Shown: positions 60,612 through 62,349 of the stretch, piece after piece
How the letters are laid out: each line of letters begins with the position of its first letter
Numbering within the stretch: the stretch's first letter is position 1
Sequence record: KX130862
Strand: one strand, 5' to 3'
Origin: Shigella phage SHFML-26
DNA: 64,000 nucleotides
Notes under the pieces: model-generated
Seen by the model: only the letters and a program-made list of their open reading frames with translations
The model's database searches: none
Told to the model about the DNA's origin: nothing
Position numbers and translations under genes: made by a program

Positions 60612-61541
60612 ATGTCAGGATATAATTCTCAGAATCCAAAGGAACTCAAAGATGTCATTCTAAGACGTTTAGGGGCTCCGATTATTAATGTTGAGTTAAC
60701 ACCCGATCAAATCTACGATTGCATCCAGCGTGCCCTAGAATTATACGGTGAATACCATTTTGATGGACTTAACAAAGGTTTTCATGTATTTTATGTAGGA
60801 GATGACGAAGAAAAATATAAAACCGGAGTCTTCGATTTAAGAGGTTCCAACGTATTTGCAGTAACCCGCATTTTACGCACAAATATTGGGTCAATAACAT
60901 CTATGGATGGAAATGCTACATATCCATGGTTTACTGACTTTCTTTTAGGAATGGCTGGTATTAATGGCGGAATGGGAACGTCTTGTAATAGATTTTATGG
61001 ACCAAATGCCTTTGGAGCTGATTTAGGATATTTTACTCAACTTACCAGTTATATGGGAATGATGCAAGATATGCTCTCTCCTATTCCAGACTTTTGGTTT
61101 AATTCAGCAAATGAACAGCTCAAAGTCATGGGAAACTTCCAAAAATATGATTTAATTATCGTAGAAAGCTGGACTAAATCATACATTGATACTAATAAAA
61201 TGGTTGGAAATACAGTAGGATATGGAACAGTCGGTCCACAAGATAGCTGGTCATTATCTGAACGATATAATAACCCAGACCACAATTTAGTTGGTCGCGT
61301 TGTTGGTCAAGATTCGAATGTTAAACAGGGTGCTTATAATAATCGTTGGGTGAAAGACTACGCTACAGCTTTAGCTAAAGAATTAAATGGCCAAATTTTA
61401 GCACGTCACCAAGGAATGATGCTTCCTGGAGGTGTTACAATTGATGGACAACGTTTAATAGAAGAAGCTCGATTAGAAAAAGAAGCATTACGCGAAGAAT
61501 TATACTTACTTGACCCTCCAGTGGGAGTGTTAGTTGGATGA
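60612..61541 (+). CDS. 13: neck protein gp13
   Basis: 309 aa, equal to T4 gp13. Confidence 0.93.
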
Positions 61542-61999
61542 ATTATACTAAAATTTACGACTCTCTTATAGAAAGATCTCTTAAAAGAGGTCTTAATAAG
61601 AAAAAATTAGATTATTATACAGAATCACACCATATTGTCCCAAAATCCATGGGAGGAGATGATTCTAGAGAAAACAAGGTTTTACTGACAGCAAGAGAAC
61701 ACTATTTTGCACATGAGCTTCTTTTTAAAATACACCGAAATTCTGAAATGGCTTATGCCTTAATAAAATTCTCCAAGGGTACAAAAGAGCAGAGAATTGT
61801 AAGTAAAGATTACGGATGGATTAAAGAGGAAACATCTAAAATTAGATCAGAAACCATTAAAAAGTTTTGGGCGAATCTATCACCAAATTTAAAACAGGAA
61901 CGAATTAAAAAAGCCGGAAAAGGCATTAAAAAACTAAATCTTTATGGACAGATGAAAAGAGAAAAGAAGTTAATGCAAATATTCGAAAAGCTTCAGTGA
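61538..61999 (+). CDS. HNH endonuclease, N-terminal catalytic part (possibly split by frameshift)
   Basis: 153 aa; HNH motif [29 protein letters not shown]; inserted between genes 13 and 14; ends where an ORF in another frame begins. Confidence 0.7.
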
Positions 62000-62349
62000 A
62001 ATATTTGGAATCGTTATCAGAAAACGAAATGTTAGAATATAAAGAAAGATGTTCTAAACAGATGAAAGATTTTTGGTCTGAGCTTAAAAGTGACCCCCAA
62101 AAATACGAAAAGTATTTAAATAAACTATCTAAGGGTCTTGCAAAAGTCGAAAAGAGAAATTGCCCGCATTGCGGAATTATATGTGATGTAGGAAATTATG
62201 GAAAATACCACGGCGATAAATGCAAAGTTATCACGGGTGTATCTCATAGCAGAGAAAAATTAAAATGCCCGCACTGCTCTAAAATCATGGATAAGTCTCA
62301 CGCTAAAAGATACCATTTTGACAATTGCAAATTTAAGAAGGTCGAATAA
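61996..62349 (+). pseudogene. HNH endonuclease C-terminal zinc-finger part (separate frame; split or frameshifted gene)
   Basis: 117 aa; two CPHC...H...C zinc-ribbon repeats; starts at GTG overlapping the upstream stop in a different frame; shares a K-x-FW repeat with the upstream ORF. Confidence 0.5.

Follow-up and report, generated by a model that had tools for sequence, protein, structure and literature searches.

The window analysed in this study, a stretch of 64,000 nucleotides from Shigella phage SHFML-26 (KX130862), comes from a T4-like phage (Tequatrovirus), of which it represents the late-gene region. Genes 13 and 14, both encoding neck proteins, are separated by additional DNA in this phage (Table 1). 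In T4, which lacks this DNA, the TAA stop codon of gene 13 is followed by a single T and the ATG of gene 14. Hence, the 812 bp located between the two genes at 61538-62349, described in the initial annotation as an insert of about 810 bp, represent an insertion. The insert is bordered directly by the last sense codon of gene 13 on one side and by the sequence TAATATG on the other. At the upstream junction the TGA stop codon of gene 13 (61539-61541) overlaps the ATG of the inserted gene. At the downstream junction 1 nt separates the TAA of the inserted gene from the ATG of gene 14, just as it separates genes 13 and 14 in T4. Both this stop-to-start spacing of one base and a ribosome-binding context for gene 14 are restored by the 3'-end of the insert (AAGGTCGAATAATATG).

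Table 1. Features of the gene 13/14 region of phage SHFML-26 (positions in the window).
Feature	Position	Strand	Remarks and basis
wac	59123-60580
Gene 13, neck protein gp13	60612-61541	+	ORF list; syntenic annotation in NR1, T6 and T4
Insert-linked patch	61518-61538	+	CCAGTGGGAGTGTTAGTTGGA, patch sequence also given as GTGGGAGTGTTAGTTGGA; allele comparison
Disrupted free-standing Mob-type HNH homing endonuclease gene (predicted)	61538-62349	+	Intact form 813 bp, 270 aa
ORF-A	61538-61999	+	153 aa
HNH (beta-beta-alpha-metal) catalytic core, residues 29-59	61622-61714	+	Pfam HNH_4, conservation, AlphaFold model
A6 homopolymer, true frameshift site	61928-61933	+	A7 in intact alleles (alignment)
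Codons for native residues 133-270, helical linker and two zinc knuckles	61933-62349	+	-1 frame relative to start
Out-of-frame ORF-A tail, 21 non-native residues and TGA stop	61934-61999	+	ORF-A translation versus intact protein
ORF-B	61996-62349	+	117 aa; GTG start within GTGA shared with the TGA of ORF-A
Zinc knuckle 1 (C209, C212, H225, C229; intact numbering)	62161-62223	+	Direct sequence reading
Zinc knuckle 2 (C244, C247, H260, C264)	62266-62328	+	Invariant in 65 homologues
Gene 14, neck protein gp14	62351-63121	+
Gene 15	63163-63981

Two open reading frames occupy the insert. ORF-A matches the Pfam model HNH_4 (E=6e-6, 26.5 bits versus a cut-off of 22), and residues H31, H32, N46, H55 and H59 are invariant among 65 homologues. 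ORF-B encodes two zinc knuckles of the form C-x2-C...H-x3-C. As listed, it comprises the GTG-initiated part of the coding sequence for native residues 133-270; in a tblastn search residues 132-270 of the intact protein mapped to 61930-62346 with 98.6% identity. The description given in the initial annotation was reproduced in all these respects: a first ORF of 153 aa with an HNH motif, a second ORF of 117 aa in a different frame whose GTG overlaps the first stop codon (GTGA at 61996-61999), two CPHC...H...C repeats in the second ORF (62161-62223 and 62266-62328), and a K-x-FW motif in both, present as KKFW in ORF-A and KDFW in ORF-B.

An AlphaFold model of the intact protein, based on an alignment of 65 sequences (mean pLDDT 93.9), predicts three parts: the beta-beta-alpha core (residues 29-66), a stretch of five long helices (89-203) and two small hairpin-plus-helix modules (206-233 and 241-262). 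Within the core, strands 29-32 and 47-50 and helix 52-66 were modelled with pLDDT values above 90. The first knuckle forms the beta-hairpin plus helix at 206-233, and the second consists of strands 241-243 and 250-252 and helix 253-259. The HNH_4 score, the invariant residues and the fold of the model place the N-terminal domain among the HNH (beta-beta-alpha-metal) nucleases. Local Foldseek matches were to the HNH domains of Cas8-HNH, McrA and Cas9, none of them significant over the whole protein. Sequence and fold searches of the PDB likewise returned local HNH and zinc-finger matches only, with no relative of the whole protein, and the NCBIfam search gave no meaningful match.

The N-terminal domain shares 42% identity with T4 MobE over 107 aa (E=9e-26) and 46% identity with T4 MobD over the first 111 aa. 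Together with the match to PHROG 655 these similarities assign the protein to the T-even Mob family. Mob proteins have a common N-terminal HNH domain and member-specific C-terminal domains, which presumably bind DNA (Wilson and Edgell, PMC2790892). The family profile of T4 MobD and the Mob/NUMOD3-type HNH endonucleases (PHROG 655) covers the whole 13/14 protein, and its C-terminal CPHC...RYHFDNC knuckle is common to many NUMOD3-bearing relatives. Pfam NUMOD3 (PF07460) itself, which many homologues carry, had no match at E<=1 in the intact protein. Outside the 13/14 element, no relative exceeded 57% identity over the full length.

By megablast the insert was found in 43 phage records. In 40 of these it contains one extra base, an A7 run taking the place of the A6 run of the window, and forms a single CDS of 270 aa that is annotated as 'homing endonuclease' or 'HNH endonuclease', e.g. 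in NR1, T6 and fPS-2. The remaining three records, vB_EcoM_F1, its RefSeq copy and FN, have the length of the window sequence and two annotated ORFs. F1 and FN are the only other phages with A6, and their ORFs are annotated as two hypothetical proteins. Relatives with two separate conserved genes, which according to the initial annotation would refute a single gene, were not found: only F1 and FN are split, and they are split by the same one-base loss. The PHROG 655 'homing endonuclease' profile produced one continuous alignment with residues 1-267 of the fused protein (E=1.8e-52) and thus spans both parts. In relatives sharing 52-57% identity, an HNH domain followed by two zinc knuckles is likewise encoded by one uninterrupted ORF of 265-267 aa. 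This supports the earlier proposal of an HNH homing endonuclease of about 270 aa split by a frameshift. On these comparisons, ORF-A and ORF-B are to be regarded as one homing endonuclease gene that lost one A from an A7 run, and the element as a known free-standing T-even Mob gene for an HNH homing endonuclease, from which one homopolymer base has been deleted.

The same element, in the same position, with the same flanks and encoding the same 270-aa protein, is present in T6 (T6ORF154, AXN58195.1), vB_Eco_NR1 (CAD7711933.1), Yersinia phage fPS-2 (g158) and about 40 other Tequatrovirus records. DNA identity between the window and the elements of T6, NR1, fPS-2 and others amounts to 96.5-100%. 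The window differs from the T6, NR1 and fPS-2 copies in its A6 instead of A7 run, which results in two ORFs.

Comparison of eight alleles located the frame break in the A-run, which has a length of six in the window and F1 and of seven in the other six alleles. The initial annotation had placed the break at the 61990-62000 junction; the alignment with intact relatives moves it to the A6 run at 61928-61933, about 65 nt upstream of the overlap between the ORF-A stop and the ORF-B GTG. The frame of ORF-B is open already from 61930. The last 21 residues of ORF-A are non-native. Over the 812 bp the window allele shows zero other differences from the intact NR1 allele. In contrast, the A6 haplotype of F1 and FN differs from that of the window at 7 sites, so that A6 in F1 and FN arose or was miscalled independently. 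In the alignment of neck and baseplate genes with the closest relative, 16.2 kb in length, the A-run deletion is the sole gap; another 4.1 kb were aligned without gaps. In the AlphaFold model the lost base falls inside a predicted helix (116-135). Loss of the A would cause the native frame to be left after residue 132 and translation to stop 21 codons further on. The product of the A6 gene would thus retain the nuclease core, and the putative DNA-binding half would be gone.

Three options had been proposed initially for the interrupted frame, namely a decaying pseudogene, a sequencing error and a frameshift-regulated gene. The first two are retained here, and the third found no support. In our view the A6 copy more likely than not is genuine, a selfish gene that lost its function through a very recent mutation, and not a programmed frameshift. 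A less probable though still plausible explanation is that the phage truly carries an intact A7 gene and that one A was dropped during homopolymer base-calling or polishing. A one-base homopolymer change in an allele that otherwise equals the intact NR1 gene is what such an error would look like, and the intact gene is under purifying selection. Moreover, the window contains a second one-base homopolymer frameshift, in a C/G run of a vs.1-like gene (~29363-29378), which bears on the question of error versus mutation. This gene (minus strand, ~29363-29491) is split by a one-base difference in the C/G run near 29378, with residues 1-43 and 39-181 in different frames, whereas the closest relative MZ234013 encodes it as one CDS of 181 aa (L014:36244-36789). 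Obvious indel errors in neighbouring A-runs of the endonuclease gene were also found in a public assembly (P0005 from Logan, a 3622-bp contig). Its endonuclease copy is truncated to 154 aa; it contains one additional Tyr, and the A-run before it has a different frameshift. P0005 probably is a low-accuracy assembly, and it shows that this part of the genome is prone to errors in some data. On the other hand, the adjacent essential late genes (about 20 kb) show zero indels relative to a 97% identical phage, and A6 and A7 runs are short for systematic errors on most sequencing platforms. A real mutation is further favoured over an artefact by the presence of A6 in the separate deposits of F1 and FN and by the location of both window frameshifts in dispensable genes, although the latter is a weak argument with two events only.

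Programmed recoding or a contingency switch appears very improbable, whether by a -1 slip of the ribosome, by RNA polymerase adding an A or by toggling between A6 and A7. It is equally hard to believe that a potentially toxic nuclease would be dosed or switched by such means. The exact native protein would be restored if the A-site Lys-tRNA slipped by -1 on AAA AAA (61928-61933), Lys-tRNA on A-runs is slippery in E. coli, and A6 was found on two haplotypes, those of the window and F1, which are 7 sites apart. However, a canonical X XXY YYZ heptamer is absent from the zero frame. In the context U AAA AAA C the A-site would re-pair perfectly, but the P-site would face UAA, and its re-pairing would be imperfect. 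The only Shine-Dalgarno-like sequence, AAGG, ends 4 nt before the run, compared to a spacing of roughly 10 nt in dnaX frameshifting. A stimulatory RNA structure, as expected 5-9 nt downstream of a programmed site, was not found: the 77 nt at 61934-62010 have an MFE of -4.8 kcal/mol, and 190 of 200 shuffled sequences were at least as stable (z=+1.41). The fold of the region around the A-run was not convincing either when compared to shuffled controls (z=-1.53). Thus, the slippery heptamer and downstream structure suggested as a check on frameshift regulation amounted to an imperfect U AAA AAA and a fold below that of the shuffles. Conservation is also missing, since the gene is in frame in 40 of the 43 records and in the IMG/VR copy (0 A6, 1 A7), the two-frame arrangement is confined to the three split records, and the diverged relatives P0002-P0004 lack Lys-Lys at this site. 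As to the addition of an A by RNA polymerase, the E. coli enzyme slips appreciably only on runs considerably longer than A6. It would be surprising if the A7 run served as an on/off switch of high mutability, or as a slip site of low efficiency, by which a costly or toxic nuclease is kept mostly silent but can be reactivated. If this were true, A6 on the window and F1/FN haplotypes would reflect recurrent switching and not decay or error. We give as little credence to a working two-piece enzyme, in which ORF-A would provide the nuclease and a GTG-reinitiated ORF-B the DNA-binding part, or in which ORF-A would act alone like MobE. The GTGA overlap has the geometry of termination-reinitiation, neither ORF contains further stops, and ORF-A with its 153 aa is comparable to T4 MobE, a protein of 141 aa that is active in vivo (PMC2790892). 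Yet neither the GTG nor the ATG at 62029 is preceded by a ribosome-binding site, so that ORF-B could only come from re-initiation at the GTGA. In addition, the split deletes native residues 133-153 and cuts the predicted helix, the arrangement is common to F1 and FN only, and open frames are to be expected anyway for a recent lesion.

If the A6 run is a real mutation, as we favour, homing by the window copy should be lost and the element would persist as a passenger. Homing presumably is inactivated in the A6 copy, although the 153-aa product is near the size of functional T4 MobE. Given this similarity in size, ORF-A could keep a non-specific or weak nicking activity. Termination of translation 350 nt early might also weaken translational coupling into gene 14, which is preserved in the intact arrangement.

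The intact element shows several characteristics of a mobile gene. The 13/14 junction was occupied in 43 records and empty in 454 (~9% occupied). Free-standing homing endonuclease genes are typically inserted between conserved genes and present in only some of a set of close relatives, as was found here. Nucleotide diversity among eight carriers was 0.009 in the endonuclease gene compared to 0.045 in gene 13, 0.027 in gene 14 and 0.025 in gene 15, i.e. 3-5 times below that of the flanks. The window and NR1 differ at 0 positions in the endonuclease gene and at 33 positions in gene 13. Such incongruent relationships of a gene and its flanks are a signature of horizontal spread. The substitutions among intact alleles were 15 synonymous and 8 non-synonymous, although 81% of the possible changes are non-synonymous, corresponding to a dN/dS of ~0.13. 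Downstream of the A-run, 7 synonymous and 1 non-synonymous substitutions were counted in the fused frame of the intact alleles. These patterns of sequence variation suggest that the intact gene behaves as an active, selected mobile element.

In the proposed mechanism, the N-terminal HNH domain would nick or cut DNA, and the helical linker and the two C-terminal zinc knuckles would bind it. In a mixed infection the empty 13/14 junction of an insert-free phage would be cut and the element copied into it by recombinational repair, whereas six substitutions within the final 18 bp of gene 13 would protect the carrier's own genome. Translation would start at the ATG overlapping the gene 13 stop codon. 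The T4 late promoter TATAAATA was not found on the plus strand from 54198 to the end of the window, and sigma-70-like promoter and terminator-like matches within the insert were at chance level. Since a T4 late-promoter consensus is lacking in and just upstream of the insert, expression presumably relies on the late neck-gene transcript. Several T4 mob genes are promoterless and read from upstream transcription (PMC2988022).

The 3'-end of gene 13 differs systematically between phages with and without the insert, as was determined by direct reading of 19 alleles. The last 18 bp of the gene read GTGGGAGTG(T/C)TAGTTGGA in 10 out of 10 insert-bearing alleles and TTTGGA(A/G)TTTT(G/T)GTAGGT in 9 out of 9 insert-free alleles, so that six fixed differences track the presence of the insert perfectly. 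Over 293 nt of flanking sequence, insert-free VEc20 and the window differ at 7 bases only, and each of these lies within the patch. The patch creates a ribosome-binding site, GGGAG at 61523-61527, which precedes the endonuclease ATG by 10 nt. In a short-query search for empty junctions with the patch, 6 records were seeded, which do not amount to a full census, and all of them carried the insert. Differences of the carrier genome near the target site, as expected for self-immunity, are thus present, and the patch may well be the target or immunity site of the endonuclease that travels with the gene. This makes the 18-bp patch a ready candidate for the recognition or immunity site. The patch also changes the C-terminus of gp13 from PFGILVG to PVGVLVG in every carrier read. 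Hence, two amino acids of a structural neck protein are altered by a selfish element.

Among the characterized systems T4 MobE is similar to the 13/14 element in several respects: it has an HNH domain, is encoded by a promoterless cassette between conserved genes that depends on upstream transcription, and the target region of its carrier is polymorphic (PMC2790892). In contrast to the 13/14 protein, MobE is only 141 aa long, has a short C-terminal tail and no zinc knuckles, lies between nrdA and nrdB, and targets nrdB. MobE-dependent nicking and homing were demonstrated experimentally (Wilson and Edgell 2009, PMC2790892), whereas the 13/14 element is known here from its sequence. A precedent for inactivated copies in T-even phages, which also speaks for a real mutation in the window, is I-TevIII of T4, a defunct, partly deleted HNH endonuclease of the nrdB intron (PMC2790892). 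I-TevIII is intron-encoded and has lost a large segment, whereas the 13/14 gene is free-standing and has a single-base lesion.

Dozens of public genomes already contain annotated copies of the element, the Mob family is well described, and the frameshifted state has already been deposited for F1 and FN. The locus thus is not a new kind of gene but an ordinary broken or mis-sequenced copy. Its annotation should be changed from two ORFs to one disrupted homing endonuclease gene with a break at 61928-61933, or to an intact gene if A6 should prove to be a sequencing error. Beyond this correction the finding matters little, and its by-products are modestly useful. A literature search that included a T4 mobile-DNA review and a 2026 paper on T6 SegB revealed no publication on the 13/14 endonuclease, which apparently has been annotated but not studied. 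With its clean signs of recent spread the T6-type endonuclease would be an easy subject for homing crosses of T6 or NR1 against T4.

Some further observations concern other parts of the window and its relatives. A second free-standing HNH ORF of 284 aa with the motif EAHHVLPKS...NLVNLSHFNHFKAH is encoded on the minus strand at 2111-2965 of the window, with the ORFs of gene 46 (413-2095) and gene 47 (3409-4428) on either side. Its similarity to the 13/14 endonuclease is weak (30% identity, E=9e-7), and it looks like a further insertion of a Mob-type homing endonuclease. In vB_EcoM_G9062 (L010, 2453-3320) gene 14 is annotated as truncated (2453-3010), and the interval up to gene 15 (3320) has no annotation. 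About 58 additional columns were required to align this phage, which apparently has a further indel or insertion behind the endonuclease gene. Two regions of the window, the tRNA cluster (37089-38163) and an early-gene stretch (28170-28450), show 83% identity to the closest relative with many indels, compared to 95-98% identity in the rest of the window. In the tRNA cluster the closest relative carries a segB-type homing endonuclease (L014:27294-27959).
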